Position numbers and translations under genes: made by a program. Shown in pieces: positions 5,138-58,841 of a stretch of DNA of 64,000 nucleotides. The stretch comes from Patiria miniata (Eukaryota), in contig NW_024037061.1 in NCBI RefSeq assembly GCF_015706575.1, positions 979,897 to 1,043,896 of the forward strand, read 5' to 3'. Below the pieces are notes generated by a model. The model searched no databases. It worked only from the letters and a program-made list of their open reading frames with translations, and was not told the origin of the DNA. Position 1 is the first letter of the stretch. Each line of letters begins with the position of its first letter.

Positions 5138-5280
5138 GGCGGCGGTCAGCCAGATGTCATCCCCTCAATACGATGCTCTGACAAAATTGTTAAAAGTTGG
5201 GAAAAAATATTGAAATCACTTGCTTGAAGAACTTAATCACTTTGCATTTAATTATAAAGTTGAACACAGATATTGACTGG

Positions 5281-5390
5281 AGCGGGTTTGAACCTGTGAC
5301 CTCCGGATTGCCGTTCCGGTGCTCTACCAACTGAGCTATCCAGTCCTACCGGGGGTACTTGTATGTTGGCGGTTCCCCAATTTGTCAATG
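5281..5390 (-). mobile_element. tRNA-derived SINE, family A copy (head ggggaaccgccaacata..GGGCTGGATAGCTCAGTTGGTAGAGCACCGGAACGGCAATCCGGAGG..)
   Basis: tRNA-like A and B boxes but poor acceptor-stem pairing. Identical flanking head and tail in four copies. Lies about 145 bp upstream of the REV3L ATG. Confidence 0.7.
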
Positions 5391-12390: not shown

Positions 12391-14139
12391 TTCTACCATG
12401 TACATGTAGATCTACTGTATGCGCGCCCGGCCATTTTTGTGCATCAGAATCGGCCCACATAACAACACATTACACTAGACACCACCTTACACTAGGGGGC
12501 GCTGTTCATATACTTGCGCTTATATCAAAATGGCGCATTTTAAGCTTTTGTACTTTTTTCTCCATTTTCCAGTGCTACATGAAAATTGTTTGGTTCTTTA
12601 GAAAAAAATAGTTCGCAATGCGCATTTTGTTGTTTCTCATGTGCGATTATGATTCAATAGCCCATGCCCCCCATGGTCAAAAAGTGTGTGGGGGGGGGGG
12701 ATATATACTCCATCCCCCCCCCCCCCCCCCCCACCCACCCCACCCCGGAGATTTATGCCCCGGGTCAGGGAACCAGCCTACAGGACAATTTTGTTTTTTT
12801 TCCAGCATCTACGAACACAAAACTTCAAACAAGTCAGTGTACTGTAACAATATTTGCTATAAAATACTTTCCCCCCCCAAAAAAAAAAATCATCAATTTC
12901 TTAAAATTACAGCAAAAGCAAATTTGTTACATTTGCACCTTTAAACCTGTCCTGCCATTTTACCAGGGTCTGGACTTGTCAAACTGAATTAGGAATTAAA
13001 TTACATGTAGAAGAGGTCATGTGGCCTTTTACAGAAAATACAACCTCATCTAACCAATTTAGGCCAAACAAAATAAATGGGGTGTTTACGGTAACAGCCT
13101 GAAAAAAATCAAGGCACCGGTCGGTAAGGAAATAATTGTATTTTGTCATTTTTTTTCATCCCAGTTCTTGCCTGTTCTTTTGCAATGCTTGAGACTCAAC
13201 CATGTACATTGTTCATGTACTTTTTGGGGGCAAAATGGCAATAAAAAGTTTGAGGTCGGCAATTTGGCCACAAAAATTTCAGGGTTACGGTAAACACACA
13301 ATTTTGTTGTTTGGCCTTACAGTAAGTAAACATACATATTGTACATGTTGTATATTGTACAAGTACATAGTACATGAAGCATCCCATATTGAAGCATATT
13401 GTCAAGAAATAATACATAATTTACAATAAAGATCCCAGAAAAAAATAAACAGTTGCCTTATGTTATTAATAAACTGTACCAGTTCATGTTACGAATGTAG
13501 CTGTTTGACAAGTGTAAAAGGGTCCTCATGCTAATATTCTCCAATAAAGAAAACAAATCATTTCATTTACATACATGTACATCGATTGCACCCAAGTCGT
13601 TCAAATTTTATAAATGTCTACATTTTGTAAGTCTGTGGCAATACCGGTATATATTGACACTTCATCTTGATGTGGAGTCTTAATTGATGCAAATATCCTG
13701 TTGTCATGGAAACTGACTCAGATGCTCCACAAGGTCCTCTGTGTGTTAATTATTTTGTGTGGTCAAATTGCATGTCTCTGTATTAATAACGCCGTTCGGC
13801 CGGATTCCAGCTATTCCCATGGCAACATTTCACTTTATTTCTTGAGGCACACATGTTCACAGAGGTGGAAAGATTCAAGCGTTGCTACGGGAGCAATGAC
13901 TCTCGTTAGATTGCCGACGTCAACATTTTCTTGAGTTGCTACCAAAATTGAACTAGTTTACTGTGATGTACTCAAAAAAACATGGCAGTTTAAGTTGAAA
14001 AATTAGTTTTGAGATATTTTTGGCAACAGCACATTTAGAGAGCAAGTTTTTTTTTTGTAAAGAAGGCCGGTGGGGGGGGGGGGGGGGGGGTGGAGGGGCA
14101 CATATACATGTAGTACACACAGGAATATATGTACACCCC

Positions 14140-17924: not shown

Positions 17925-18056
17925 ATGGGCATTTTCAGTAACTGCCAGATATCTCTGGATCTCGATGCAATCCAAGTCCCTTTCAAAAAGAAACAACTTC
18001 TTAGGAAACAGGTGACCAGCAATGGAGGAGTCATCTCTTATATACTCACCAAGAAG
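17925..18056 (+). CDS. PARP4: PARP4 exon 1 with start codon; MGIFSNCQISLDLDAIQVPFKKKQLLRKQVTSNGGVISYILTKK
   Basis: Matches the human PARP4 N-terminus MVMGIFANCIFCLKV...QQQKKKLQ (BRCT start). First in-frame ATG after the stop at 17877. An acceptor-like cag at 17918 suggests an upstream non-coding exon. Donor GTAAGT. Confidence 0.8.
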
Positions 18057-18200
18057 GTAAGTCAGGGCGCCAGACTGTATTGACACAGTGACGAGTGGAT
18101 ATGTTTGGCATGATCAACGGATCTGCACTATCGTGATCTGCCGTCGACCGCACTTAAAATGGGTCATTAGTGAATCATTTTTGCTCACATTTTCTCCCAG

Positions 18201-18399
18201 ACCACATATCTCGTTGCCAGCAATGGGCCGAAGACCGCCGACTCCTACAAGGGCCGTACGGCCCAGAAGCAAGGGGTACCGATCGTCAGTGTGAGTTTCA
18301 TCGAGAGATGCGTGGAGGAGGGAAAGCTGCTGGATCATGATGACTTCCTGCTGGTGGGCAAGACTACAAGCATGCAGTTCAGCTCTGGTAAAATCACAA
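18201..18399 (+). CDS. PARP4: PARP4 exon 2 (BRCT domain)
   Basis: Acceptor tttctcccag, donor GTAAGT. Translation TTYLVASNGPKTADSYKGRTAQKQGVPIVSVSFIERCVEEGKLLDHDDFLLVGK is BRCT-like. Phase 0 to 1. Confidence 0.8.
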
Positions 18400-18881
18400 G
18401 TAAGTATGCGTTCTCTATGGGCTCTGTGCACATTTTTAATGCACTACTAGTCTTGGTTGCAGCCTTAGAGTCTAAATTCCTGGCAAGCAGGGTTATAAGC
18501 CACCAATGAATCAAATCCAGTCTACTCTTGGTAACTTCTCATACCCGAGAAACTCTTAGCTTACCACATATGCATGCATACATTGAATACAACACGCATG
18601 AGGTATGATCAGCATTTTTAGGGTCTATGCGCCAAAGTTCCCAAGATTGGATGTGATATGGTTAACTGGCGTTTGACTAAATTCTGGTTGAAACCAGGAT
18701 TTTCAATGTTGTTGGCTAAGTCGACTTTGGGACCAGACTACTGCGATAGGTCACATCGCTGGTTACTTGTACCAATAGTTTTGCTCATCTTAATTTATAA
18801 CAGGGAGCAAGACCCCCTCACCCCCATCCCCCCCCCCCCCCTCTTCAAATAATTGTACTGAATTTGACTGTTTGCCAATAG

Positions 18882-18948
18882 GTACTAAGACACAACAAGA
18901 GCCAAAGAAGCAAATGAAAGTGTCCTCCTTCAACATCAACAAGTTCAA
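18882..18948 (+). CDS. PARP4: PARP4 exon 3
   Basis: Acceptor tttgccaatag, donor GTGAGT. Phase 1 to 2. Encodes STKTQQEPKKQMKVSSFNINKF. Confidence 0.7.
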
Positions 18949-19318
18949 GTGAGTTTAGACCTTCATTTAACCAAGCAAGTTTCAAGTATAGTGCCAGGGT
19001 TTAAAATTCTGATGTCAGTTCCTTATAAGCTCCAACAAAAAGATGACAGTTAATCTTAAAGCTGTTGATTGAGGAACTGACAATTTTTTTTACAACTATT
19101 TATCACATTATATCCTTTATATTTTATTACCTCAAGACATGCCAGATAAACACAATTGAGAAAGATATTCTTTTAGGCATAACCTAAACAGCATGCCTGC
19201 ATTCAGCGTGGACAACCTTCATAAGTCTTCGTTCGCGAAGCCAAGCCATGATGATGAAACAAAGTTTTACGAAGTCAATACCATGTTTCATTTATTTAGT
19301 TATCTAAGACAATGTCGG

Positions 19319-19560
19319 GGAGTGTGGCCTAGTGGTTAGGGTTCATGACTCATATCAGAGAGTCAGGGGTTCAAATCCAGCTGCTGACCATATGTTGTGT
19401 CCATGGGCAAGCCACTTCACCTCAACTTGCCTCTTTCCACCAGGGAATATAAATGGGTACCGGCATTAGCTTGGGAGCAACCTGCGATGGACTGGCATCC
19501 CATCCAGGGGGATTAGAAATATTCTCAGTCGTTTCATACCAAGCAAAACGGAGATAAATG
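19319..19560 (+). mobile_element. SINE family B copy (PARP4 intron 3)
   Basis: gtgtggcctagtggttagggttcatgactc..ggggttcaaatccagctgctgaccatatgttgtgtccatgggcaagccacttcacc.. Confidence 0.7.
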
Positions 19561-19656
19561 CCTGATTGACCTAATTGGCTCGTGATGGACTTCATGTTTT
19601 ACTTTACTAAGACAAGGAGCCAAGTTTTTTAAAAGATGACTTTCTTTCCTACTTAG

Positions 19657-19735
19657 GGTCTGGCCATGGGGAAGCATTGATGCACCCGCTTATCCAGAGG
19701 AAAAGTATGAAGTTGCGAAGAGTGTTCTTCTTCAG
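19657..19735 (+). CDS. PARP4: PARP4 exon 4
   Basis: Acceptor ctttcctacttag, donor GTGAAC. Phase 2 to 0. Encodes KVWPWGSIDAPAYPEEKYEVAKSVLLQ. Confidence 0.7.
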
Positions 19736-20266
19736 GTGAACAAAATTAATTCTTATTTCTGCGTTATGAATGTTCACACCTCACACAAATTGGGGTCTAA
19801 AAATTTGTCGTGATATAAGAAGCAAGTGCCTTAATCAAACTTATTTCATTAACGTCATGGCATAATTGACCTATCACCGTTTTTGAGTTGGCCACGCCCC
19901 TTTGACAACCCTATGGAATTTTTGACTGCTAAGTTTTGTTTGTTTCAGATGTTGCGCATTTCGCGCCATTTGTATATCATGTAATTGGACAAAATTTCAC
20001 CAGCTGCGTTGACGTGATTCTAACGCGATAGGTCAATTACCTTCATTCTAGCTTTCAAGTTTGAACAGACTCATGATGACATCAGTATCTGAAGTTTCAT
20101 TGAGACATTTGCCCTCGAGACATTTGCCCTCGAGACATTTGCCATTGAGACATTTGCCAGAATTCATTCACTTTAACCAAAAATTAAACTGGAACGTTCA
20201 GAGAGAATATTTGAAAGAGACATTTAGAGCAAGCATTTTGACAAGTTGTTTTGATTTTTTTTCTAG

Positions 20267-20428
20267 AAAACGGACGTCAGGAGCAAAGATCGAATCTTCT
20301 ACCAACTGGAGTTGCACGTGGTGCCCGATGACGTCTTCAACCTCGCTAGGAGCTCGGAAGACACCGAGCCGGAGATTGCGTACACATTCCGGGTCTTTAC
20401 TCATCGTGGTGTACTGGACAACATCATG
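20267..20428 (+). CDS. PARP4: PARP4 exon 5
   Basis: Acceptor ttttttctag, donor GTAGGT. Phase 0 to 0. Encodes KTDVRSKDRIFYQLELHVVPDDVFNLARSSEDTEPEIAYTFRVFTHRGVLDNIM. Confidence 0.75.
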
Positions 20429-20559
20429 GTAGGTTGCATGGGCATCCATGTGATGCATCAGCACCAAATGAACATGAATTCATTTTTTTTTAAAAGAATT
20501 TAACAATAAACCACACAGGAAAACTGATCAGCGTCCCTTAAACAAAGACACTTGACAAA

Positions 20560-20665
20560 ATGAGGAACCACCAACATAGGGCTGGATAGCTCAGTTGGTA
20601 GAGCACCGGAACGGCAATCCGGAGGTTGCAGGTTCAAATCCAGCTCCAGTCAATTGCTCTGTTCA
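20560..20665 (+). mobile_element. tRNA-derived SINE, family A copy (PARP4 intron 5)
   Basis: Same head (ggaaccaccaacatagggctggatagctcag...) and tail (ccagtcaattgctctgttcaacttcaacaaa) as the other copies. Confidence 0.7.
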
Positions 20666-21014
20666 ACTTCAACAAAAACAAAAAGTAAGAATTGAAATAT
20701 TTATATATTCTGCAGAGCAGGGGCTTTCTAATGGTAAAAACATTGGCAGTACTGAGTTCAGTAACTGAAATATAGACCGCCAACTTAAATTGAAGATGTA
20801 AAATTAATTTTTGAGAAAATGTCATTGTATAATACCAGAATACTACAGTTGTATTGAAGTGAATGGACATATAAATCAGGACGAAAAAGGTTTCCAAGAT
20901 CATTGATAGAAAATAGATTGTATCTTTCTTGAAAATGTCTTTACGACAATGTTTATTTCGGTGTTTTAATTGAAGAATTAAAAAAAATTGCCTCTTTTTT
21001 CTTCAACTTTTCAG

Positions 21015-21164
21015 GATGAAGACTCGGGAACAAGAGAGGTACGCTACTGCAGTACCAGCGAGGAAGCCTTAGAGCTTTACAGCTTCCTCTATCAACAGCA
21101 ACACAACATGAGTAGGAGCAAGAAAGTGGCATCGCGTTGGATCGGCTCGCCCAAATACAGACAG
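21015..21164 (+). CDS. PARP4: PARP4 exon 6
   Basis: Acceptor cttcaacttttcag, donor GTATGC. Phase 0 to 0. Encodes DEDSGTREVRYCSTSEEALELYSFLYQQQHNMSRSKKVASRWIGSPKYRQ. Confidence 0.75.
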
Positions 21165-22310
21165 GTATGCGACCTGAGAGAGTCTCAAGGCTTTAGTGAA
21201 AGGGTGTAACAACATTTTTAAAGAGAGTTTGGAGTGGGACTTTCTTCTTCGGCAATACACAAAGCTGGTTTATTTTGAACTTCTTTTGAAATCTTCTTTA
21301 GTAATGTCCCTGAGCAAACCTGTTTACCGCAAGAGAGGATGTTTCCATTACAGGTGGAGTGATGGTTCTGTCAGTCAGGGTTCGACTTGAGCGGTAGCCC
21401 ACTAGCCAAATGCTAGTCAAAACAGCGGCCGGCTAGTCAAACTATTCCCTAAGTAGCCCGGCTGGCGAGTCAAAAAATTACTGGGATACGACAAAGATGA
21501 AAGGACAGGAAGAAATCATTAAATTCAGAAAGCAAACCTGTATCAATTTTGATCTTTTTTTTCCCTTCAATATATTCTTCCTTACTTTTCTTTTGTATTA
21601 GTCACCCAAATCATTCGACCATTGGTTTTGATGTCACAAGGCTTAGAACGTGGTACCTTAATTTTGAGTTACTAAATGTCCCTCTTGGGCAACTGGAATC
21701 AGTCAACATTTTCAACCGCATCTTTGTAATTTTATGTCTGTGGGATATATAAGAATAGCTGAATGTGCTCTTTCTCAGGCAGATGAAAAAGTGGTAAATG
21801 AAAAAACAAAATGTCATCACTACTTGTTTTGTGAGAAAATCCTCACTTTTGTGATAAACCTGCAGATTGTATTCCCTATTAACCCTCCTGCTGTTTGAAC
21901 AGTCACGGACAGTCAAACATTCCATCCACTTCCCCTGCCATGCTTTTTATATAGGCTAGTCACAAGCAGTCAGATCATATTGTGAGCAGGCACTTTGACT
22001 AGTCAAATTCAGTCAACAGACAAAAGCAGGAAACTGGTGGGCGCGCGCAGCTGGCTTGTCAATCACCTACAGTCAAAGCATAGCTGTATCAAGCTACATA
22101 AACAGTCACAGCCAGTCAATCCTGCTTTATGTAGGCTGGGAGCTCTTAACTGTTGAAAATAGTCACTAGATTGATTTTGACTGAAAGGACAACTTAATGT
22201 ATGTTTGCATAGGAATGTTTTAATAGGCATAGACCATTCATTTTGATGGTTTATTGGCGAGATGATAAGGAGAAGCATTACACTCAAATTCCTTCTTCTC
22301 TTACGTCCAG

Positions 22311-22451
22311 ACCCAGCTGAGCATCGGGGAGCACGAGGACGATGAGATGAGCGGAGAAGTAGCATCCTTGGTGGCCAGTCTGTGGAAGGAGACACTTGGA
22401 GAGCTGGAAGACATCTTAGCTGTTGACGTCAAGACGCTCACCGCGGAAAAG
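22311..22451 (+). CDS. PARP4: PARP4 exon 7 (PARP regulatory helical region)
   Basis: Acceptor ttctcttacgtccag, donor GTAGGA. Phase 0 to 0. Encodes TQLSIGEHEDDEMSGEVASLVASLWKETLGELEDILAVDVKTLTAEK. Confidence 0.75.
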
Positions 22452-23120
22452 GTAGGACGAGATGTTATTACACTTCATTCATATTCATGAGCCAAATGTG
22501 CTTCCCTCATTGGTTGATGTTCCAATAGGTCAGGGAACTAAAATTAGCTAAGGGCCAAGGATGAGTTTTAGACAAGTTGTGGACATTGCATCAGGTTTAA
22601 GTTGCAAGATTCTGAACAACTTCTCCACAATCTTCCCGCAATGAAGTTGTCAGTATTGATGAGTCAAGCAGTTGCTATTGAAAATTTCCCCAGAACATGT
22701 CCGGACAAATGCAGAGGCTTCTTTCGGACAAAGTGACCCGCAACTTGTCCTGAACTGACCCTGGATATAAATTGAGACGAACCCTAACCAACACGGGCGT
22801 ACTATTGCCCAGCAAGTCGGTCGTACTAGGGAATTACTAGATAAGCTCCTAGACTCCCAACTATGTAATTTCAGTTGCAATGGCTAATGAAGTTGCTGGT
22901 GGTACCATACTAAAACCTTTATGACAGACGACACTTACATAGTAGCTAATCCGCCTGCGCACGACGCACATAATACCTCTCAACTTTTCCTTAGTTTAAG
23001 ATATTAGTAGCTAAAGATTAGCTCCTACACTCCCAACAATGCAATTGCAAATGAGGTTGCTGGTGGTACCATACTAAAAACTTCTTCATTTGTCTCATGT
23101 TTTTGTTTTTCTGTCGACAG

Positions 23121-23318
23121 ATTTCCAAAGCCGAGAGTATCCTCTTACAAATCAGAAAGGCCTTGGATTCCCGAAGCGATGGGGCTGATGACGACGAGCG
23201 AGAGATTAGCATTGCGGAACTGACCCAGGAGTTCTACAGTCAGATACCTCACAAGACCCAGCAGAGGAAAGACATCAGGACCAAGAGCCTGATTGCCAAA
23301 AAGCAAGAGCTATGCCAG
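23121..23318 (+). CDS. PARP4: PARP4 exon 8 (PARP regulatory region)
   Basis: Acceptor ttttctgtcgacag, donor GTGATT. Phase 0 to 0. Encodes ISKAESILLQIRKALDSRSDGADDDEREISIAELTQEFYSQIPHKTQQRKDIRTKSLIAKKQELCQ. Confidence 0.75.
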
Positions 23319-23334
23319 GTGATTGTCTTCATAA

Positions 23335-23550
23335 GCATTAACCCGAACAGTGCTCAACCCATCAAACCCCAATGTTTTGTTGGAATTTGTCAGGATGGGT
23401 ACAGTACCCCTAAACTGACAGTCTTTTACATTGGGTTGGCACACCTCCAGAATCACAGTCAGAAACATGTGTGTGCAGTTTCCCATATGGTGTTGGAATT
23501 TGCCAGGATGGGTATGGTTCCTAGTAAATCATGCTAGGGAGTTAGGGTTC
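23335..23550 (+). repeat. Interspersed repeat family C copy (aacccatcaaaccccaatgttttgttggaatttgtcaggatgggtacag...)
   Basis: About 200 bp, nearly identical to 39940-40145. Confidence 0.7.
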
Positions 23551-23559
23551 AAGTTGTGC

Positions 23560-23890
23560 TAGTTGTTAGGGTTTGTGGCTCATGATGAGGGGGTCAGGGG
23601 TTCGAATTCCAGCTGCTGGCCATATGTTGTGTCCTTGGGCAAGCCACTTCACCTCCACTTGCCTCTCTCCACCCAGGAGTATAAATGGGTACCGGTATCA
23701 GCTGGGGAGTAACCTGCGATGGACTAGCTTCCCATCCAGGGAGGAATAGAAATCCAGCTGCTGGACATATGTTGTGTCCTTGGGCAAGCCACTTTGCCCC
23801 CACTTGCCTCTCTCCACCAGGGAATCAAAATGAGTACCGGCATTAACTGGGCAGTAGCCTGCGATGGACTGGCGTCCCATCCAGGGGGAA
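23560..23890 (+). mobile_element. Cluster of two to three tandem or nested SINE family B copies (PARP4 intron 8)
   Basis: ggggttcgaattccagctgctggccatatgttgtgtccttgggcaagccacttcacc.. is repeated. Confidence 0.7.
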
Positions 23891-24146
23891 CAGAAGTTTT
23901 GGTCCTCAAAAATCAAGCTGTTCGAGTTCTATAACTCATACCAATTTACTCATATTTCTTTTCAAAAAACGAATAAATTTCCTTTCGTTGATCATGTGAT
24001 GATGTAACAATCCTTTCTTAGCTTTGTTATACAATGTACACTTTTTCCAAGTTGTAAATTTTACTAGGCCTACATGAATATATGTGAATACATTTTGAAC
24101 AAAAATTATCTCCCACCCCCCTTTCTCGACTTTTTTGTTGCTTTAG

Positions 24147-35253: not shown

Positions 35254-35935
35254 ACAGGGTGAGTCAAAAAAAGCGGAACCCAAACCCCCAAAAATATATT
35301 TCATATTTAAAAAAATATGTAGCACCAAAAATAATAATGACTGGAAAGCCAATTTCATAAAGCTACTTTTAGATGAAAAAATACTGAAATTGCTCAATCC
35401 GTTCAAAGAATATCACCATTTAAACGCAACGACCCTAAAACCTGTCTCGTCCAAAAAAGCAATTTATTGTGCGTTTTGACTGTTTGGAACAACAAAGAAA
35501 ATGACACAGAATACTTGTTTCAACAACTGTCACCACCTGTAGTGCACAATATCTTTATTAACAACCCCGGTTAGGCAAACAATATAATTTATAAAATCTA
35601 CTTTTTTTAAAAGATGGGCCTTCAAAAAGACTTTGTTGAATATTTAAACGTTTAAACTGAGGTTTTATCGCTGGTGATGTTTAAAGACAATTGTGATGCC
35701 GATTCTTGAAATCACATTTATTTTTTTGGACGAGACAGGTTTAGGGCCATTGTGTTTAAATGGTGATATTCTTTGAACGGATTGACCAATTTCAGTAATT
35801 TTTTCATCTAAAAATAGCTTATGAAATTGGCTTTCCAGTCATAATTATGTTAGGTGCTACATAGTTTTTAAAAATGAAATATAATTTTTGGGGTTTGGGT
35901 TCCGCTTTTTTTGACTCACCCTGTAGAAAACAGTG
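35254..35935. mobile_element. Foldback MITE of about 680 bp, TIR ACAGGGTGAGTCAAAAAAAGCGGAACCCAAACCCC (PARP4 intron 26, abutting exon 26)
   Basis: Long arms at 35254-35470 and 35700-35935 are reverse complements. The left terminus creates a CAGG|GTGAGT donor and the right terminus an acceptor-like ccctgtag. Confidence 0.75.
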
Positions 35936-36176
35936 CATCGGAGCAAAAGAATGTAAAAGTTGGATGAAGGATCGTTGTTGACACGTGTATTACATTGTAT
36001 TTACATGTATTTCCTAATGAATACTACAACCAATTATTTAGTGCTTTGGCTTTTCGGGATGGTACAGAGTGTAACAGATATTATTTTTGGGGGCAAGGGA
36101 GGGGATCCAGAGCCTTATGGGTTTCTGTTAATGAAGTACATTGTAAATATCAAGCATTTTCACATTTTATTTGCAG

Positions 36177-36236
36177 CATTGGTCGATTTTGCAATGAGTG
36201 ATGAAGGAGCACTAGACGACTACCTTTGTTTTAGTC
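36177..36236 (+). CDS. PARP4: PARP4 exon 27
   Basis: Acceptor cacattttatttgcag, donor GTGAGT. Phase 1 to 1. Encodes ALVDFAMSDEGALDDYLCFS. Confidence 0.6.
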
Positions 36237-36969
36237 GTGAGTATTTGGTTTCAGATATTGAATGAAATTTCTACTTCATTTTGGTCGTATTGCTAGGGTG
36301 TCAATCACTTCTCAAAAGCGGGGGGGGGGGGGGGGGGGAAATACCTTGATCAGAATTAATGCGAGTGCGAAGCCCTAACACTGGGTTTCAGGGCCCACTT
36401 AAGAGCCCCGATTTTTTTGGGTTCTAGACGCTCTGTGGTGCAATTTGAGGCAATTTCTGACCACTTTAACCAATTTTTTTTTTAGCAAAAAATTATCATT
36501 TAAACATCATTTTCGAGTTTGGAGTCATTGAATCAGCTATTCTGAGCTATAGAATCATTATATAAGCTACTATTTGTATTCAGAGGCAAACAAAGTGGGG
36601 AGGACAAACGATATGATATCCCCCACTTTTACCCCCCCCCATAAGTCTATAGAATATCCCCTTGCATAGCAAGGGTCTATGATATGCGAGCTGATTCGGC
36701 GATTAAATATGCAAAACAGTACTGCATCTTGACATTGAAATTCTGACCATTCAGTGGATGCCTACTATCAGGTCTTCAGTAACCTGCTGCTGTATTACAA
36801 AAATACGGCAGCCAAATTGACCAATCAACGGCTAAGTCCACATTTCTGATCGAAAATGATGTCAGAATTTCTAAAGTCGACTCCGCTCCGCTGGCTGCAG
36901 GGTCACATAAAATTTGGATTGCTCACATGTGTCAGACGTTGGTTATTGTACAACGGTGGATACTTAAAC

Positions 36970-37762
36970 TAGGCGGTATCTCAAAATACAGCCGTGAAAC
37001 TTCCAAGTTCTGAATTGTTTTTTGCCAGAGCGTCACATTTTCATTTTGATGTATATTTACTTGTCTTTCTTCATGCAGCAGCCTACAGTCCCACTTCGCC
37101 AGGATATTACATGGGCGAGGGTGAGTACACAGTGGAATAGACCTTGCGCAGCAGCCATCTTAATAATTCATTAGCAATGAATGCACAACGGTCCACGCAG
37201 GCACATCCCAGCAAAACAAATGCATTGCCCTCTAAGATGGTTGCCATGCAACCGGTCTATTTGAAAGCGCTTTTGCAGGTGAAGCATTTGGAGGTGGGTT
37301 TAACGCTGGCAGTGGAGTAGATTCGCTCGTACCCCCTGCCCTGCAAACAGGACGCTGGTCAGGGCTGACGTCATTTGAGCTCTCAATGGATATATTTGCA
37401 TGACCTGTGACGTAGAACGCATCTTACAAACTAGCTTCTTGTGCCCATAATATGCAAATCTGACAGAAATACAAGAATCATAAATTCCAAATTTTCAGGC
37501 CACAGAAAATTGTATGCCAAAATTTATCATTTTTTTGTTGATTTTCCCAAATGAACTCCTTAGCGACGCACGTTTCTAAAAATGCAATCAGATGAACAGA
37601 ATGTGGTGTTTACATTCGTGACTTGTCCTCATTAATGCTAAATATTCATTAATGCTCCAGGCTGCATCTCATAAATACGGCTGTGCAACTTCCAACTGGT
37701 TTTGTTCTAGATGATCACATTTTTCTGTTGATGTACTTGTCTTTCTTTGTGTAGCTCCTTCT
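36970..37762 (+). repeat. Segmental duplication of the intron-exon junction that generates paralogous PARP4 exons 28 and 29
   Basis: 36970-37078 and 37660-37754 are homologous (..atctcaaaatacagccgtgaaacttccaag..ttgatgta..cttgtctttctt..gcag/gtag). Confidence 0.7.
37079..37120 (+). CDS. PARP4: PARP4 exon 28 (symmetric phase 1-1 cassette exon; paralogous to exon 29)
   Basis: Acceptor ttgtctttcttcatgcag, donor GTGAGT. Encodes PAYSPTSPGYYMGE. The roughly 100 bp of upstream intron is duplicated in front of exon 29. Confidence 0.55.
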
Positions 37763-37973
37763 TACAGTTCTGCTTTGGATTCTTATGCTGAGGACGACGA
37801 AATGTGCATGGAATTTGAAGAAGAAGGTGAACGATTTAGAAGAGGATTTGACGCTGGCGAGGAGAAATATGCCATGATGGAAGATTGTTATGAAGCAATG
37901 GAGATACGTGCCGTAGATGCGAAATCAGATGCTGACGACTGGGAAGATGACGACGACTATGATTCTGACAGTG
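37755..37973 (+). CDS. PARP4: PARP4 exon 29 (acidic region)
   Basis: Acceptor cttgtctttctttgtgtag, donor GTGAGT. Phase 1 to 1. Encodes APSYSSALDSYAEDDEMCMEFEEEGERFRRGFDAGEEKYAMMEDCYEAMEIRAVDAKSDADDWEDDDDYDSDS. Confidence 0.65.
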
Positions 37974-38152
37974 GTGAGTTGATTATAATGGGCCGTATTC
38001 CCCAACAATTGAGGGCGCTATAACATTGCCATTTCTGGGGGCGTGAACAGACACGAATGCTTGGTTATTGACATAATTTGATTCGAACATTGCTACAAAT
38101 GAAGAAATACATTTCAACAATGTATTTTAATGTAATTGTTTTTCGTTTCCAG

Positions 38153-38218
38153 AAGTATCGGAGAATGATCTACTGGAGTTCCTGGAGGAACAGGAGAAAC
38201 TTGATGAACAGCTACTTT
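38153..38218 (+). CDS. PARP4: PARP4 exon 30
   Basis: Acceptor tgtttttcgtttccag, donor GTAAGA. Phase 1 to 1. Encodes EVSENDLLEFLEEQEKLDEQLL. Confidence 0.6.
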
Positions 38219-39035
38219 GTAAGAACAGAAATAAGGAAGTTTTTGTTTTAATTTATTTTCGTTTTAATTGGAAAAACTGACTTTCCATATCAAGAACATG
38301 ATAATTTACAGAAGCTGTTTTGAGATGTCTGCGATCTATTATTGGGTAATGGAAATTGTTACTGCAATTGACTCTTCAAAAGAGTGGACTCGTGATTCTT
38401 CCAAATTTGAAAATTGATTCTGTTCGATTCTGACGTGTAGTCGCCCAAGCTTAAAGGGAAAGTGCTCAAAATCTTTTAAGATGATGCCTAACTTGATGAA
38501 CTGTTAGCTCTTTGAACAAAAATGAAATGCTGTATATTTGGAGAAAACGGGAACAAGCATAAACACAATGTTTTGGATCTCGATTTCAATTTCAAAGTTG
38601 CCGATTCGTAGGTTGAATTGCGCCCTCTCGTGACTCAATCTGAAAATCGGCATTCAGGACACGATTCGTATTCAGCCAGTTGTTACCCATTCACGGATTC
38701 GCCCAATGCAACCCAACTACAAATTTGAACCCGCGGGGGCTGATTCACGGAAATTTCCAAAAATGTGTCGCTTGACATATCTTTGGAAATAGCCTTTTGT
38801 TGTTTTTCTTGAAAATGACAGCTTGACAGAGGGAACAATTTCACAGGGAGTTTAGTGTCATTGTCATCTTTCATTAAAGTAGCTTTCTAACTATAATTTA
38901 GCCGGTTGTTTTTTTAATCGATGCAAATGGTCGACCTTACCTTTAACTTCCTCCTATAAAAAAGAAACTTATATTCCTCTAAATTTCTCGTGCAAATTTA
39001 TTTTATTCGTTTGATTCCTCACATAGCATCGATGC

Positions 39036-39154
39036 CGCCACGCACCAGAGTCAGAGGCAAGGCTAGAGGCGGTAAGATGATGTTTGGAGAAAAGAAGGCG
39101 GAGGGATTACTTTCTCGAGATGTTGATTTGGCTCCGGATCAGTCGGTGAGAATG
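39036..39154 (+). CDS. PARP4: PARP4 exon 31
   Basis: Acceptor tttgattcctcacatag, donor TCG|GTGAGA giving phase 0, which the next exon requires. An earlier GTAAGA donor at 39081 would break phase. Encodes SSMPPRTRVRGKARGGKMMFGEKKAEGLLSRDVDLAPDQS. Confidence 0.55.
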
Positions 39155-39939
39155 TTTAAGCCCAATCCCGAAGGACACAAAATGCTCAAATTTTGTTATT
39201 CTCTCCTTGTACTATGTTTTCCTTTGCATAATCACGAGCAAACTCGGCTTTTAATTCCTATGTGTCATATCAACCCATTAGCATTGTATTACACTGCTAT
39301 GTATTCATTGAAAAAAAAAAAGCTAAGTAATTTGTCAGTCACACCACAAACCGTCGTATTGCAGTTTTTGGTGTTTTGAGAAAAAAAAACGATTTAAAGG
39401 TGACCATATTTTTGTAGGCTCATTCCTTATAACTTCTGTGTAAGAATTCACTCGGTTTTGTTTCAGCTACAAAATTAATGTTGAAACTTCATTGTACACG
39501 ATCCGTTTGCTTATTTTAAGATATTCAGTTCCCAAGATACACGTCACTCTATCAAACTTACTTTATTGTAGTTCATACAACGCGCGTAATAGTGGCCACG
39601 TGTTAGATACGATGGTTCGTGAAACGATGATTTCTCACTGTCCATGCTGGTGCTGTTTAGTTACGTCACAGCGCTATGGGAATTAGTGCGCAAAGTGGTG
39701 TATCGGGATACGACCCTTTGTGTTGAAACATTTTTTATTTTTTGGAGATACGCCGCACAGTCTAATTAGCATTCTTATTTATTTAGAACTCAGATCGGAA
39801 TAAAACTTTGTGAGGATGAGCACTCTGATGAAATAAAAACGTTAACGATAAAAACTCAACTTGGCCAAAAACAGTTTTTGTCCTGTTCCTGTTACCTTGG
39901 TTTTTTGTAAATTGCCATTCAAGCATCATTAATCCTAAC

Positions 39940-40145
39940 AGAACTCAACCCATCAAACCCCAACGGCATGTTTTGTTGGAATTTGTCAGGATGGGTACAG
40001 TACCCCTAAACTGACAGTTTTTTACATTGGGTTGGCACACCTCTAGAATCAAAGTCAGAATATGTGTGTGCAGTTTCCCATATGGTGTTGGAATTTGCCA
40101 GGATGGGTGTGGTTCCTAGTAAATCATGCTAGGGAGTCGGGGTTA
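39940..40145 (+). repeat. Interspersed repeat family C copy
   Basis: Nearly identical to 23335-23550. Confidence 0.7.
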
Positions 40146-40388
40146 AGAATGACTTTGAGCAATTTTTTATAATTCATAATCACTCTTGGACGACGACTGC
40201 GTTAAGGAGTGCATCAGAATTATAAAATCATAGATGTCATAAACAATGACAGGTAAAAAATGGACCACATAGAATGACACAAATATGACGATTTCTCCAT
40301 CATGCAACATTTGACAAGATCAAACAGCCAGAATGGAACAAATCGTTTTTAGTTAACGTTTGTTTTTGAATAATTTTCATTTTTGTAG

Positions 40389-43296
40389 GTAAAGAAGACA
40401 GAAGAGGAGTATGAAAAACCAAAAGAGAGGGCAATTATGTGGGGCAGTGCACAGCGCCATCGGCGACGTGAAATTCCAGATGAGGAATTGAAATTACAGG
40501 GCAATACTGATGGGATCACCTTTGCAGAGCCTGCTGATAGCTCACTTGCCGAAAGAAGTCCACATCGTTTTCCATCACCAGCCACAGGGTTTGCATTCTC
40601 TGCGCCTTCACCTGCGTCGCAGGCCGCTCATCCTGCACTTCAGGCCGGTGATCCCGCCGTCGCTGAGGCCTTGTCCTCAAGCTCTGTAAGCACTGGTTTC
40701 TTTACATCCACAGCACCTCGACAGGCTCGTGCCTCTAAGTTTAAATCGATGCTACCTCCTGCCAGACTTTATAAAGCAAAAGGAGTCTCACTTCAGGGAG
40801 AAGCCCCCACTGGAGGTCTGTTTGGAGGACCTTCTCTTCGCTCTGGCTTTGATGAGGGACTGACCCTAGGTCATCAACCCCCACTGGAAGCTGGTGTTCC
40901 AAAGCCTCAAACAGTAACCGGGTTTGGGGGAACTTCCGTAGCCCCTTCTTATGGTAGAGTGTTTGGTGCCCCTTTTTCTGGTGGTATGTTTGGAGGACCT
41001 TCCCTTCCCTCTGGCTTTGTTGAGGGACGGTCCCTGGGTCGTCAACCGCCACCGGAAGCTGGTATTCCAGAGCGTCAAGCAACAGTCGGGTTTGGGGGAA
41101 CTTCCCCAGCCCCTTCTTCTGGTGGACTGTTTGGAGCCCCTTTTTCTGGTGGTCTATTTGGAGGACCTTCCCTTCACTCTGGCTTTGATGAGGGACAAAC
41201 CCTAGGTCGTCAACCGCCATCGGAAGCTAGTATTCCAGAGTTTCAAACACAGTCTGGTGGTCTGTTTGGGAGACCTTCCCTTCACTCTCGCTTTGATGAG
41301 GAACGCCCCCGGGGTCTTCAAACCCGACTGAGAGCTGGTATTCGAGGACATGGTGAAACAACACTGAGCGACAATCTGTTGGAGGAAACTTCCGAATCCC
41401 CTTCGTCTGGTGGTCTGTTCGGCGAACCCGTGGTACCCCCGGTTGGTCAAAGGCCAATACCAGCATTTCGCAAGCAAATACCAACCACTAGCATGCTTAA
41501 GGGATCTCCCAAGCCCAAGTCTGATGCTGGAGTGGCACCAATTCAACCCCCATGCCGAGAAGCCAGAAAATCTGCCCCTCAAGAGCCAGCCAAGGGCGAT
41601 TTGCTCTCTAAACCCCCAGAAGAAGCAGCTATGCCTGAATCATTCAAGTCAAACTCTAAAGGAACCGTAGGATTTTCCGACAGAAAGCCACAACAAATCC
41701 GCCTTGAAGCAGGAGGAGTTTCTTCAGGGTTTAGTTTTGGAAGTGTCCCACAGCAGCAACAAACGGCTGGCGAGTTTGCGTCCACAAGAAAAAAGGATCT
41801 GTCAAAGCTACTTGGGATCTTACAGCCAGAGCAAACAGAACCCATTTTGCATGCACGGTCCATGGCATGGCCAATGCAAGCCGCTAATTCTCCTGCTAGG
41901 TTAACCGCTGCCCCGCCCCGTCGCTTTGCTGCCACTGCAGCACCATCCCCACCGCCTTCCCGTAACGCTGAGGTCAGTACATATTCTGCATCACCACCAC
42001 CTCCTCCAACTGCCTTCTTTGCGGGGATACCCCCTCCCCCACCACCCGCCCATGATGGTATAGCGCCCGGACAGCCCCCACTTCCTCTGGACATGATGAG
42101 ACGCACAATTCAAGAGGCTTTGGAGCGGTTTTCCAGTCCGTCTGGGCGGCCTCCCCCTCTGCCACATGCAGGAGCATCAAGCTTAGGGGGATTGTCTGGA
42201 AAAGCAACCCCCGCGACATTGGGTCAAGTACGACAGAGGCAAGAAATGGCTGACGATTTTGCGTCCACTAAAGTGTCTGCGTCAGCAGGACAGACCTCTG
42301 TCACCTCTGGTCTGTTTGGGAGCTTACAGTCACAGCAATCAGAAACCACATTGCATGCACAGTCATTGGCATTGCCAATGCAAGCCACCAGTCAGTCCGC
42401 TGGGTCACCCCCTCCTGTCCCGCCCTGTCCTCGTCTTCCCCTGCCCCGTCGTCCACCCCCACGGCTTCCCTTTAGACCTAGACCACGTGATTTATATGAT
42501 GAATCACCACCACCCCCTCCACCTGCCCGTTCAAGGATGCCCCCTCCCCTTCCCCCACCACTTCCTGGTAAAGAAAAAGCACCCCGACAACTAGGAAAGG
42601 GAATTCAAGAGCCTCAGCTTGGACAGCCTGCTGCTGCGCCTCTGCCACGTGCAAGACATTTTAATACAAAAAGTTACTCGGCACTACTCGGGCTTGAGAG
42701 TACGGCTGAAATACCAGATCACGCAAGGGTTTCGAGAAGCAGCAATAAAGAAAGCTCAACACCCGTGGAGAGTAACAAAGTTAGAATAAGACAGGAGCTC
42801 TCGTCAGACATGCGGAGAAACCTGAAGAAAGATGCAGCCGAAGTTCCGCCACAGTTTTTCGATACTATAATGGCGTTCGGGAGTGATGATGCTGAGGAGA
42901 CATATACATGTATGGCTGCCGATGAGAGTCATAAGCCAAGTGATGAAGGATATGCTCCTGCAAAAGTCCGGGGAAGTTTGAAGAAGAAAAAGAAGAAAGC
43001 ATTTTTTGCCGTGTCAGAGGACCGTGGTAAAGATGTTGACGAGGAGCAGATCGGTAAAGAAACTGAGGAAATCCCAAGTCTCCAAAAGGCTTCCCTGATT
43101 CAAGATGCCAGAAGCCAACCGGTTGTAGAGCTCTGCCGTATGTCTCCAAAGATGAGACCTAGAGGCATAGGGCCTAAAGTCAGTCCAAAGCCTCCACCAC
43201 TTAGCCACACTAAGGACATCGTCAGTGATTTGTTGGGTGAGATAGAGATAAGCACAGCCATCAGTGCACCACTGGGCTTTGGCACAACAGAGTCAA
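40389..43296 (+). CDS. PARP4: PARP4 giant exon 32 (about 969 codons): proline-rich, low-complexity C-terminal region with four tandem repeats of about 57 aa (GGLFGGPSL.SGF.EG..LG.QPP.EAG.P) and PPPPPP stretches
   Basis: Acceptor tcatttttgtag. Continuous ORF from 40389. The in-frame stop at 43326 is bypassed by a perfect donor TCAA|GTAAGT at 43296/43297 (phase 1), which matches the phase needed by downstream exons. Confidence 0.7.
40800..41340 (+). repeat. PARP4: Coding tandem repeat (four units of about 171 bp, 57 aa) inside PARP4 giant exon 32
   Basis: GGLFGGPSLRSGFDEGLTLGHQPPLEAGVPKPQTVTGFGGTSVAPSYGRVFGAPFS / GGMFGGPSLPSGFVEGRSLGRQPPPEAGIPERQATVGFGGTSPAPSSGGLFGAPFS / GGLFGGPSLHSGFDEGQTLGRQPPSEASIPEFQTQSGGLFGRPSLHSRFDEE.. 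Confidence 0.8.
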
Positions 43297-44078
43297 GTAA
43301 GTTACTCTTTGCTTTACCTTCTAGTTAACCCATATGGGCATATTGAGTGTTTGTGGCGAAAGGTAACAGCTTTTTTTTTTCTCCGGTCATCTGGCGTGGT
43401 CACCTGGTACAAGGGGGTAGGAGGTTTGGGGGAAGTAGGATCTTTCTGGGGGGAGTACTGTTCAAAGGGAATGATCATGGGCACTTTCAGACAATAGGTG
43501 ACGCTCTTCATGGTGCTACAATTGCCAATGTTTTGGCAACGTTAAAAAGGGCACTCCTGGGAAAAAAAGGTTCTTGAAAGGTATATTTGAAAAGAAATCT
43601 GATACACTTACTTGCTCAGAATGCTTGGCGCATTTGAACTTTGAATTCTCCAGACCAAAGACACTGTTGCTAATCGCATGATTCGGGGCAAGCTCTTGCA
43701 TAGTTACGTAAGAGACACTCAGCACCAATGCATTGTTCACACTGGGTGGGAATGGCACAAAGACACCAGATCATGCCGGAGCTGGGGGTTGCTAGCGTAA
43801 GGCTTGCCCCGAATCATCTGATATAGTAACAGTCTCTTGGGTCGGGAGAGCGCAAAGTTTAAAAGGTGCAAAGCATTGGATTAAGTCAGCATTTCAGATT
43901 TTATTCAAATTTCACTCACAAATGGCTTATTTGAGTGCATGAAGTTTCAAAGTCCAAAAGGGAAATGATAGTTTTATAACATTTTGAATTACGAGGTTCA
44001 CCTACATTCAAAGAAACACATTTCACAAAACAATGTATGCTTGTATTCAATGATGTTGTTCTGTAATTTATGAAACAG

Positions 44079-44146
44079 AATTCCGAAAGCATAATGGAGA
44101 TTTCAGTCTCGAGGCTATCATAAAACTTCTGAAACATCAGAATGAG
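44079..44146 (+). CDS. PARP4: PARP4 candidate exon 33 (KFRKHNGDFSLEAIIKLLKHQNE)
   Basis: Acceptor tttatgaaacag, donor GTAAGT. Phase 1 to 0, compatible with the giant exon upstream and the next exon. Could be an alternative cassette exon. Confidence 0.45.
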
Positions 44147-44916
44147 GTAAGTTGATGGATATTATCTTTACTTTTCATTGCTATTATTATTTTCATTTTT
44201 TTGGGGTATAAAACAGTGACGTGAATGCAAAGTTGTCGACGTAAGTTTATAGGTTGCCATAATTGCAAAAAATTTCAATTCAACAGTACAGTGTCTCACT
44301 CTTTGTGGAGGTAAAGTTACAACAATGCTGTAGTAATGTGATTTTACTGGGTGTGTTCGTTAGCTCACCTGGGTCAACACGGGTTAGCCCCGTGCCGTTC
44401 GATTAGCTCTGATGTCATTCTCGTGGCTCACCCGGGCCAGCCACCACAGACCCTGCTCGTGGAGCAGAGTCACTGGTGGAAGTACGTCACGCATGCGTTG
44501 TTCATTCCCTAGAAACGGACAAATATGGCGGCCGGACAGCGAAAATTTCATGCGGACTAAAAGTTGACTCGATTTGAAGTCTAATGACAATGATTGAGCT
44601 CATTGCGACTTTTCAGGCTGTAATTTCAACCCAACTTTTTTGCGTTTTGAAACGGACTGAAGAGCAGTAAATCTCAAACTAAGACCCAATCGGATATGGG
44701 CGTTTTGTCAGCGGCTACGCCACGGCTTAAGGCTTCACGTGAGGATCCTGATGGCCCGCGGTGCAACGTTCCATTAGCTGGGCTGTCGTGGCTGACCCGT
44801 CTACCTTCTACGCAGAGGGGGAGACTGTTCACTCAGAAAAAAATGATTTTGTTACAGTGCACTCATTGGCTGAAGAATACAGCCTAACGCCTCACTGTGA
44901 ACTCTTGTTAAAACAG

Positions 44917-45016
44917 GACGGATCATGGGAGTTGTTCATGGGCATCAAAGAGCACGTCGGAGTTAGACTGAAGCCGGTCAAGAACATGCTGAAAGAAGCT
45001 GGCGTGAATTCACTCG
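44917..45016 (+). CDS. PARP4: PARP4 candidate exon 34 (DGSWELFMGIKEHVGVRLKPVKNMLKEAGVNSL)
   Basis: Acceptor cttgttaaaacag, donor GTGAGC. Phase 0 to 1, compatible with the terminal exon. Confidence 0.45.
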
Positions 45017-45377
45017 GTGAGCAGAATACATTAGTCATCATGGGCCTTTTCTTACAACGTTTGCAAAAATTCAAAAACGGGGGAAAAGTTTTGACACAAT
45101 TTGTTCTCCCTACTATCTGACTCTGGCCACTGAGGATTATCATTGGTTATACATAACGGTACACTGGTTCTATCTCCAGGGGTAAACAAAGGACTTTTTT
45201 AAGGGTGTTTTCACGGACTCCTAATCCGTGAAAATTTAGTTAACTGTAATTTCAAGGGAAAATGGCTCTTTAACGAATGTTTAAGGGATGAAAATGTTCC
45301 ATGATTAAACTCCATCGATTCTCTGTTAATGCAAGTGTAACTTATTGCATACCTTGTTTGCTGTTGCTCTTAAACAG

Positions 45378-45622
45378 GCGAAGACGTTGCCTTGAAGATC
45401 CAGAAGCTGGTGGCCACCTATCTGGTCATCCTGTACCTGAACCACTTCTTGGCACAGTCGCCAACGATGAGCAGGCAGGAGAGAGAACGGATCACCCAGG
45501 CCGTTCTGAATGCGGAGAGGTTCGTCAGTCAGGCTGAGGCGGAGTATCCATCCCTGGCACGTCGCCTGGAGCTCGGAAGCAGCTGGGACGATGTCTGCCA
45601 GGACATCTTCAAGATGATGTAA
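45378..45622 (+). CDS. PARP4: PARP4 terminal coding exon, stop TAA at 45620-45622 (..EDVALKIQKLVATYLVILYLNHFLAQSPTMSRQERERITQAVLNAERFVSQAEAEYPSLARRLELGSSWDDVCQDIFKMM*)
   Basis: Acceptor ttgctcttaaacag with phase 1 in. Long clean ORF ending in a stop. Phase-compatible with both the giant exon and candidate exon 34. Confidence 0.7.
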
Positions 45623-46282
45623 CTCCTTATGTAGTGCAGAGAGTCTAAGATCCCAGAAATGTTAAAAAGGATTGCAGAAATGTTAACCAAATTTGTTTTG
45701 ATATCTAACGTAGACATGTATATCACCACATAAGATCAAACCACTGTTTTCTTAAAAACTTTTAGCTGGCGTTGTTTACAAAAAATCTCAAAAACTATAA
45801 AATATTTAAATTACCATTTAATCAGATGTTATACCAAAATTAACTGGTATCGGTTTTTGTTTAGTTACAAACACTTTACATCCTAATTTGTTGGGTTTTA
45901 GCCAAAATTTCAAAAATGTGATTCGATTGAAATTTATTTCATTTTTCTTTTAGTTTAAACGTCTGAGAATGGTGTGTAATGTTTACTTCAAATTAATCAT
46001 GTATAATTGAAGTTACATGTATGTTTGGGATTCAAGATATAAGCAGTATATGTTTCCATCTGAAGAAATTGTGTTACTGATTGATCTGTGTTATACTAGA
46101 AGCTAACACGACCCTGTTGCAAACTCCAGACATTGGGGTGTGGGGGCACACCTCGAAACAAAACACATGATGCTTATGGTTTTTGCCATTGGGAATTGCT
46201 TGCCTGGTGAATGATCACTGGCTACATGTTATAGTGGGATAATAGTTAATACAGCCCTTGAAGAAAAGACATTGACAAATTG

Positions 46283-46385
46283 GGGTACCGCCAACATAGG
46301 GCTGGATAGCTCAGTTGGTAGGGCACTGGAACGGCAATTCGGAGGTCGCATGTTTTAACCCTTTCCAGTCAATTTCTTTGATCGA
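46283..46385 (+). mobile_element. tRNA-derived SINE, family A copy (PARP4 3' flank)
   Basis: Same family. Confidence 0.7.
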
Positions 46386-58340: not shown

Positions 58341-58841
58341 CAGTTACACCACAGGAGGCCAGTCCAACCGGCACTGCTTCATTCCTGCTGGGTCTACCTT
58401 TTTGAAACCCCATACATGTTACATGTACAGAGGTCTGACAAATTCATGATTTCCGTTGTTTGTGCATCAATTTCAGTGGTCAAAGAAAGAAAACATGGTT
58501 TAATTACCCGACAAAAACGAATTCGACATTACATTTAATATTTAATTTATGAAAAATCTAAGTGCGTTTAGACCACTAAAGAATGATTCAGGTATGCGAA
58601 ACAAGTCGTTAAGTCAAGCGATATGAATTGTTCCCTGCTGGTGGTAGGCATTCATCTGGTGCTGAACTGCCGAAAGGAGATAACAGCTTAAAAGAGATAA
58701 GAAAGCCTGGTTCAGTCTTGAAGAAAAACCCGAATATAAGACCACTAGTTGGGTTTTCTTTTCAAAGAGGATTCACGGCATAAAAGTGGCATAACCGGAC
58801 TGTGTAATAGCTAAATTCTCCCACCAATAATCTCAACTCAC

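Follow-up and report, generated by a model that had tools for sequence, protein, structure and literature searches.

Does a PARP4 gene of an invertebrate deuterostome run unbroken from an N-terminal BRCT domain to a C-terminal domain for docking on the vault protein MVP? The question is raised by positions 17,925 to 45,622 of a 64,000-nucleotide stretch of contig NW_024037061.1 from Patiria miniata (the window, by which we mean the whole stretch analysed), a region that an earlier note had read as a complete orthologue of the vault PARP, PARP4. We put at roughly 85% the probability that the region is one intact multi-exon PARP4 orthologue of an invertebrate deuterostome, of echinoderm type. 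Both PARP4 ends lie on the same strand in their proper order, the exons that connect them are frame-compatible, and homology to any other gene was not found between these two ends. As to completeness, both protein ends stood up to analysis, while exons 27–31 and the exact exon count remain predictions.

The two conserved ends of the gene

From 17.9 to 45.6 kb, the plus strand is dotted with short open segments encoding PARP, VIT and vWA peptides. Roughly joined end to end and searched against a database of 5.8 billion proteins, they returned 539 matches at E ≤ 1e-20, and the 120 of them that were listed are PARP4, PARP4-like or unnamed/hypothetical models. Among the matches listed, identity over the core was 65% to Amphiura filiformis, 60% to Saccoglossus, 58% to Ptychodera, 50–56% to cnidarians, annelids, molluscs and amphioxus, 47–49% to asteroid and holothurian proteins, and ~45% to vertebrates, which places the window gene nearest to ophiuroid and hemichordate homologues and by itself would point to an invertebrate, most likely an echinoderm or at least an ambulacrarian. 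With 65% as the highest identity, the protein of the source species itself is absent from this database.

The earlier note had suggested comparison with Pfam and human PARP4 as a check, naming a lack of similarity as the outcome that would speak against it. Similarity was found on both counts: five Pfam families, and a match of the full model to full-length human PARP4 at E=2e-267, with residues 1–1250 collinear with human residues 3–1215. This collinear match stops at residue 1250, that is, at position 33543. PARP1 was matched at ~1e-23 only.

The Pfam domains, all above their gathering cut-offs, follow the order that had been proposed, namely BRCT (residues 2–93), PARP_reg (302–390), PARP (415–587), VIT (658–768) and VWA_3 (908–1060). 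The BRCT region scored 38.1 bits with BRCT_2 (cut-off 27.3; E=1.9e-9) and 28.9 bits with BRCT (cut-off 21.3), and matched BRCT of human PARP4 (crystal chains 9dfo and 9dev) at E=7e-6. No WGR domain was matched by Pfam in the model; residues 94–300 fall within the collinear alignment to human PARP4, whose own WGR-like domain is visible only via HHpred or AlphaFold (PMC10450202). PARP_reg scored 34.6 bits (cut-off 26.8), and the PARP, VIT and VWA_3 domains were matched at E=2e-31, E=1.2e-36 and E=7.9e-22. Aligned to chain 8sx1 of human PARP4, the helical regulatory domain (HD) and the catalytic ART domain together reached 260.6 bits (E=1.8e-76), the best scores elsewhere being 92.6 bits for PARP1, 89.9 for PARP2 and 56.7 for PARP3.

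The catalytic residues and the MIDAS motif are in place. The motifs LLFHASR (24746–24766), GSGIYFAD (24981–25004) and DDEFAVY (26189–26209), all noted before, are present and align with H, Y and E of the human PARP4 catalytic domain; the Y of STSAKYS aligns with its human equivalent as well. The MIDAS motif reported for the vWA domain was likewise recovered, as D914-L-S916-N-S918, T986 (in GNTD) and D1011 (in FFFSDGH), the last two lying 72 and 97 residues past D914. By the canonical I-domain pattern, D914, S916, S918, T986 and D1011 would be the metal ligands. Residues 904–1221 match ITIH4 and ITIH1 (E=8.6e-10 and 3.5e-7), and the ITIH-like module was traced as far as ‘...FTSFVAVE...LSYLGW’ by tblastn, using six homologues together with the Amphiura locus.

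The opposite end of the gene is carried by the last three exons, of which the earlier note had pointed out a conserved C-terminal exon ending IFKMM without recognizing its vault-docking identity. When the spliced 137-aa C-terminus was searched with phmmer against the whole PDB, it matched human PARP4 residues 1575–1703 at E=3.3e-7, the next match being at E=0.99. A profile built from 28 vertebrate C-termini ranked exons 35 and 34 first and second among 2,206 six-frame fragments of the window and gave 58.5 bits to the spliced exon 33–35 peptide, and a profile–profile alignment with hhalign returned a probability of 98.6% (E=1.2e-15, 125 columns). The exons carry the motifs ‘QNEDGSW’, ‘NSLG’, ‘LVAT’ and ‘EYPSLARRLELGSSWD’. 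Pfam detected no family in the last exons, the copy searched predating the PARP4-specific families PF26156 and PF26166.

In human PARP4, the MVP-interaction domain was assigned to residues 1562–1724 by two-hybrid and pull-down experiments (PMC2169495), has been visualized at the vault wall by cryo-EM (PMC12280208), and is named MVPID for residues 1570–1724 (PMC10450202); we refer to it as MINT/MVPID. Four of its residues—S1614, K1618, Q1682 and R1689—touch MVP in the human complex (PMC12280208), and Arg1689 forms the centre of a conserved surface patch (PMC10450202). At the positions of Ser1614 and Arg1689, the window protein has the same residues. Run exhaustively with the exon 35 peptide over 1.84 billion representatives, phmmer yielded two short fragments only, P0121 (E=3.5e-7) and P0122 (E=6.3e-4); the latter lies on a 2-kb AT-rich Logan contig (SRR6399684) and carries no exon-connectivity information.

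Upstream of the exon 34 acceptor (44860–44916), an in-frame ‘...CELLLKQ’ mimics the exon 33 end ‘...IIKLLKHQNE’, so that the conserved ‘LLxxQxxDGSW’ motif can be built in two alternative ways, from exon 33 or from an extended exon 34. This double origin may reflect alternative splicing or the remnant of an exon extension.

The exon chain and the giant linker exon

A chain of 35 exons, as put together by hand in the earlier note, could be rebuilt with phase kept at every junction (Table 1). It runs from the ATG at 17925 to the TAA at 45620–45622 and comprises an open reading frame (ORF) of 7,848 nt with 0 internal stops, GT–AG borders at 34 of 34 introns, and intron lengths of 118–1,243 nt; the predicted protein of 2,615 aa has a mass of ~290 kDa and ends in CQDIFKMM. 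The number itself is not fixed, because exons 27 (60 nt) and 30 (66 nt) can be included or skipped with no change of phase, and because exons 33 and 34 can be replaced, with the frame kept, by a single exon starting at 44816, 44837 or 44858. This single-exon alternative scores 55 against 58.5 bits with the vertebrate C-terminal profile and has weaker acceptors. Between 33 and 35 coding exons are thus defensible, 35 being reproducible but not unique.

Homology supports exons 1–26 and 33–35, for exon 33 weakly. For exons 1–24, all GT/AG pairs near the tblastn blocks were tried and the joined peptides scored against six to eight homologues, which gave canonical splice sites throughout. The N-terminus MGIFSNC aligns with residue 1 of hemichordate homologues, and exon 3 is backed by the Amphiura peptide ‘KVSSFNINK’. 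Read together, the 19 exons between 20267 and 33268 are free of stops in one frame only, with 33 and 48 stops in the remaining two. Two candidate acceptors exist for exon 7 (22317 or 22311). Two candidate donors exist for exon 13 (26375 or 26366), and the choice is uncertain because a 115-bp tandem array (95% identity, 26334–26684) begins inside the 3′ end of this exon.

Table 1 Features of the PARP4 coding region, with positions in the window.
Feature	Position	Strand	Assignment
Whole PARP4 coding region	17925..45622	+	35-exon model, 2,615 aa, ATG to TAA
Exons 1-2	17925-18056, 18201-18399	+	BRCT domain (Pfam, tblastn, junction test)
Exons 3-6	18882-18948, 19657-19735, 20267-20428, 21015-21164	+	putative counterpart of WGR-like region between BRCT and HD of human PARP4
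Exons 7-9	22317-22451, 23121-23318, 24147-24304	+	helical regulatory domain (HD, PARP_reg)
Exons 10-13	24658-24795, 24914-25012, 25780-25963, 26189-26375	+	ART catalytic domain
Exons 14-16	27255-27385, 27515-27733, 28303-28508	+	VIT domain
Exons 17-20	28940-29021, 29333-29663, 30570-30828, 31038-31137	+	vWA/rest of ITIH-like module
Exons 21-24	31905-32075, 32344-32424, 33086-33268, 33445-33567	+	vWA/rest of ITIH-like module
Exons 25-27	34641-34799, 35127-35214, 36177-36236 (27 tentative)	+	14-3-3-like helical region
Exons 28-31	37079-37120, 37755-37973, 38153-38218 (30 tentative), 39027-39145	+	acidic linker, ab initio
Exon 32	40389..43296	+	2,908 nt, 969 aa, low-complexity linker
In-frame 168-nt (56-aa) tandem repeat	40810..41258	+	2.7 copies, 85% identical (TRF)
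Exons 33-35	44079-44146, 44917-45016, 45378-45622	+	MINT/MVPID homologue

Homology to relatives fades past position 33567. A custom profile of the region following ‘FTSFVAVE’, built from nine invertebrate PARP4-like proteins, scored 96.6 bits including the upstream conserved block, its alignment spanning exons 24–26 and entering exon 27; the Amphiura match inside exon 25 covers 34665–34748. The Pfam 14-3-3 family (PF00244) showed no match at E ≤ 1 over residues 1218–1509. Since the custom profile aligns and Pfam fails, the segment of exons 25–27 is homologous to the corresponding region of relatives yet unrecognizable as 14-3-3, a degenerate feature that had gone unnoticed in the earlier note.

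For the stretch beyond, exons were predicted with a dynamic programme of our own, whose codon log-odds and splice matrices came from exons 5–23. Run purely ab initio, it shredded the region into 51 tiny exons under permissive settings; stricter settings left the 2.9-kb ORF in pieces, the composition of exon 32 being unlike that of the training set. The ab initio chain was kept for 33445–40389 only, with the giant exon forced, and was stable there over the penalties tried. The codon scores of exons 28–31 lie above those of 97.6–100% of equal-length stop-free intronic windows and that of exon 27 at the 85th percentile, a lenient test given that exons 27–31 had been picked on that very score. Exons 28–31 are strongly acidic and probably encode a disordered linker.

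The single exon of about 2.9 kb that had been described is indeed one exon, bounded by strong splice sites. At its acceptor (ttttgtag|GTA), preceded by a pyrimidine tract, the AG supplies bases two and three of the stop codon at which a frame of 979 codons opens; the donor (CAA|gtaagt) lies 30 nt ahead of the closing stop. An open frame of this length is expected by chance at ~(61/64)^979, or ~4e-21, and this frame together with the splice sites supports the exon. Its length is 3n+1, as needed in this model for the MINT exons to stay in frame.

With respect to composition, exon 32 is rich in proline (13.9%), serine (11.2%), alanine (9.8%) and glycine (9.5%), and contains six GLFG motifs and 13 FG dipeptides. 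The description of a repetitive, PPPPPP-rich region held for the tandem repeats and the proline content, but hexaproline runs number just two in 969 residues. The 168-nt repeat carries GGLFGGPSL...GFGGTS motifs, and self-BLAST revealed a second duplicated module at 41812–41882 and 42316–42386, 504 nt apart. The exon grew via internal duplication.

FG-repeat nucleoporins of the GLFG type have tens of FG or GLFG repeats, spacers rich in Q, N, T and S, and an anchoring domain. A nucleoporin-like reading of exon 32 was rejected: its repeats are few, half of them stemming from one recent 168-nt duplication, and neither tens of repeats with an anchoring domain nor a nucleoporin Pfam domain was found in the model.

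One gene against its alternatives

Several observations weigh against a single intact PARP4. The gene model was drawn from genomic sequence alone, and exons 27–31 came solely from the splice-site and codon-usage programme. The exons of the C-terminal half, concatenated (920 aa), had no match in the protein database at E ≤ 1e-3, and exon 32 as a whole no homologue at E ≤ 0.01 among the 5.8 billion proteins; in these searches, residues ~1360 to 2478 were without any homologue. Differences between repeat copies in exon 32 are spread evenly over the codon (10, 10 and 5 by position), suggesting that the exon is barely constrained and that its coding nature is argued by the open frame alone. Many invertebrate PARP4-like models are 1,250–1,530 aa long, with 14-3-3, actin or ubiquitin ends and no MINT, which makes it possible that the window gene has a shorter isoform or ends further upstream. 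At the docking surface, the equivalents of two of the four MVP contacts are changed, Lys1618 to Asp—a reversal of charge—and Gln1682 to Glu. In the human complex, Lys1618 pairs with D214 of MVP; the window does not contain the partner MVP.

Some of these points would suit two transcription units, a short PARP4-like gene ending after the 14-3-3-like region and a downstream gene made of the 2.9-kb ORF and MINT. The ab initio origin of exons 27–31 and the lack of database homologues for the C-terminal half fit such a split, as do an in-frame ATG at 40437 in the ORF and the finding that 36 of 37 invertebrate PARP4-like entries checked had no MINT match. We nevertheless regard it as unlikely. MINT/MVPID is known solely at the C-terminus of PARP4, with fold-level resemblance alone in VWA5A (PMC10450202), and a PARP4-like protein of Asterias amurensis (P0027) joins an ITIH-like module to a weak MINT-like C-terminus, so that such a combination probably has an annotated precedent among echinoderms. 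The strong acceptor and the GTAAGT donor 30 nt before the stop are the pattern of an internal exon, and all parts are on one strand, ordered and frame-compatible. As for the missing matches, the longest protein among those listed measures ~1,550 aa, so full-length models are perhaps just absent from the database.

Less probable still is that the 2.9-kb frame lies outside PARP4, as a nested intronless gene or as captured or transposon-derived sequence in a PARP4 intron. Exon 32 is an orphan with internal tandem duplications, its GC content is 0.49 compared with ~0.41 for the window, its codon-usage score is negative under the exon 5–23 model, and its repeat copies differ without codon-position bias. 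However, in the best chain the MINT exons lose their frame once its 2,908 nt are skipped, its borders coincide exactly with splice sites, and no Pfam or transposon domain was found in it; moreover, the human PARP4 linker at the same position is also long and fast-evolving (PMC10450202). The open frame and composition of exon 32 appear to be kept, its amino-acid sequence not. A decaying copy—pseudogene or redundant paralogue—is the least credible option: PARP4 duplications have been reported in sea urchin (PMC4245714) and the 47–49% identity of asteroid and holothurian proteins, set against 58–60% for hemichordates, suggests more than one echinoderm PARP4-like lineage, but 7.8 kb of coding sequence contain no stop or frameshift, all 34 introns are canonical, and neither the catalytic triad nor the MIDAS or conserved MVPID motif is disrupted.

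Taking the region as one PARP4 gene, we infer that the middle exons would be spliced as modelled, and that the protein would be catalytically active and bound to MVP. Its predicted order is BRCT, WGR-like region, HD, ART with an H-Y-E triad, VIT and vWA with MIDAS, degenerate 14-3-3-like segment, a disordered linker of roughly 1,150 residues that is first acidic and then rich in Pro, Ser and Gly, and MVP-interaction domain. If the human complex is a guide, the helical domain at the C-terminus would attach to MVP repeats 3–5 at the inner vault wall, and the long linker would tether an NAD+-consuming ADP-ribosyl transferase and an ITIH-like protein-binding module in the vault lumen.

According to a 2025 structural paper, the residues of MVP that bind PARP4 are confined to vertebrates, and PARP4 was proposed to have come to occupy vaults late (PMC12280208). 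Ancestral docking would run counter to such a vertebrate-only occupancy (PMC12280208), and becomes testable given that the echinoderm-type MINT is clearly homologous and has kept the Arg1689-centred ‘YPS..RLELG..WD’. It is possible, though we would put it somewhat short of even odds, that the vault-docking domain of PARP4 is older than vertebrates and that PARP4 is luminal in the vaults of invertebrate deuterostomes too. We are just as tentative about the companion idea that anchor and enzyme are split by a fast-evolving tether of >1,100 residues with GLFG and polyproline motifs. If true, this tether could recruit further partners into or onto the vault.

Genomic surroundings and relatives

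Upstream of PARP4, the first coding exons of a REV3-like gene (DNA polymerase zeta catalytic subunit) were recognized on the minus strand at 3298–3552 and 4976–5164 (REV3_N E=2.5e-12, POL3_N E=1.7e-10), head-to-head with PARP4 and ~12.7 kb from its ATG. Downstream, a 271-codon open segment on the minus strand (52117–52929) encodes a C-type lectin domain and, behind it, a PAN/apple domain (Lectin_C E=2.3e-12; PAN_1 E=2.9e-8), and probably represents a single large exon belonging to a lectin gene. Further on, two Ribosomal_S9 (uS9) exons on the same strand (58765–59022 and 59666–59869; E=3.5e-13 and 3.1e-5) presumably belong to a gene for mitochondrial ribosomal protein S9.

Four tRNA-Ala(GGC)-like sequences, at 5274–5345 (−), 20580–20652 (+), 28108–28180 (+) and 46255–46380 (+), were called by ARAGORN and scored 55–62 bits with the Rfam tRNA model; mutually 86–93% identical over 80–140 bp, and with two of the four inside PARP4 introns, they resemble the heads of SINEs from one tRNA-derived family more than tRNA genes. 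An interspersed repeat of ~115–200 bp recurs in PARP4 introns at 19317–19558, 23559–23895, 25240–25722 and 26334–26684, the last being the array that enters exon 13. A 220-bp repeat is found 92% identical at 23336–23553, just past the exon 8 donor, and at 39927–40147, ~240 bp before the giant exon.

Homologues of PARP4, which forms PARP clade 5, are already known across animals, and the gene as such was to be expected, PARP4 being routinely annotated in invertebrate genomes; apart from its long, fast-evolving linker exon, it is an ordinary orthologue. In sea urchin, purified vaults show bands of ~200 kDa and the genome encodes a VPARP homologue (PMC550661). Since the closest public models are short, fragmented or chimeric, a curated model from BRCT to MVPID offers a better reference for echinoderm vault work.

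ITIH heavy chains and VWA5A share with the window gene the ITIH-like module of VIT and vWA. They are weaker matches, possess no BRCT, HD or ART, and are secreted or functionally unrelated. The C-terminal appendages of invertebrate PARP4-like proteins vary, comprising half a 14-3-3 domain (hemichordate, amphioxus and, weakly, brittle star), an actin fragment (Ptychodera, Amphiura) or ubiquitin (several gastropods), segments also described in PMC4245714; the window contains no actin, ubiquitin or Pfam-level 14-3-3 exon. In Ptychodera flava (P0003) and Branchiostoma (P0006, P0008), which show 56–58% core identity with the window gene, the helical segment after ‘FTSFVAVE...GW’ aligns with exons 24–27. 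There it is a clear half 14-3-3 (E=4.6e-21 and 7e-31), whereas the window copy is too diverged for Pfam; the Ptychodera and Branchiostoma models have no detectable MINT domain.

The closest relative is the PARP4-like gene of Amphiura filiformis (P0001, GCA_039555335.1, locus L001), with 65% identity over the query from HD to vWA and exons collinear with the window from the BRCT exon to the 14-3-3-like region, up to 34748. Its public model is fragmented or chimeric, in that the BRCT exons form a separate gene of 129 aa and the model ends in a fragment of 40 residues from the actin N-terminus. No counterpart of exons 26–35 was found in the 18 kb downstream at that locus. Within locus L001 (from CM076873.1), the counterpart of exon 4 occurs five times at 139-bp spacing (12481–13126 of the locus) and that of exon 14 four times at 135-bp spacing (30089–30640), owing either to an assembly artefact or to exons duplicated in tandem.

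The Asterias protein P0027 (1,442 aa) resembles the window protein in its ITIH-like module, 14-3-3-like region and weak MINT-like C-terminus, the latter carrying ‘QGQDGSW’ and ‘LVAT’, scoring 13 bits in total against the MINT profile and matching the window C-terminus by BLASTP at E=1.6e-4. At the Asterias locus, the sole tblastn match was the ‘VADLLSKEEVDALSYLGW’ exon. P0027 differs in its 49% core identity, in a linker of ~100 residues with no equivalent of the giant exon, and in the decay of the ‘RLELG..W’ motif to ‘GFELDWG’.

Human PARP4 (1,724 aa; PDB 11jf, 9bw6 and 9bw7 for the full-length protein in the vault, 8sx1 for HD-ART, 9dfo for BRCT) has the same order from BRCT to the ITIH-like module, collinear over ~1,215 residues, the same H-Y-E residues and, after a disordered linker, an MVP-interaction domain at its C-terminus. 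Unlike its human counterpart, the window protein carries a degenerate 14-3-3-like segment after the ITIH-like module, and its linker is encoded largely by one 2.9-kb exon with GLFG-type and polyproline motifs and recent internal duplications. From the ITIH-like module to the docking domain, this linker measures ~1,150–1,230 residues versus ~350 in human (1215 to 1570). The human linker, at the matching position, is reported to evolve rapidly under positive selection in primates (PMC10450202), and that of the window is an expanded example of this known PARP4 linker, no new kind of feature. Made about three-fold longer through in-frame duplication and under near-zero sequence constraint, it fits a tether in which length and disorder outweigh sequence.

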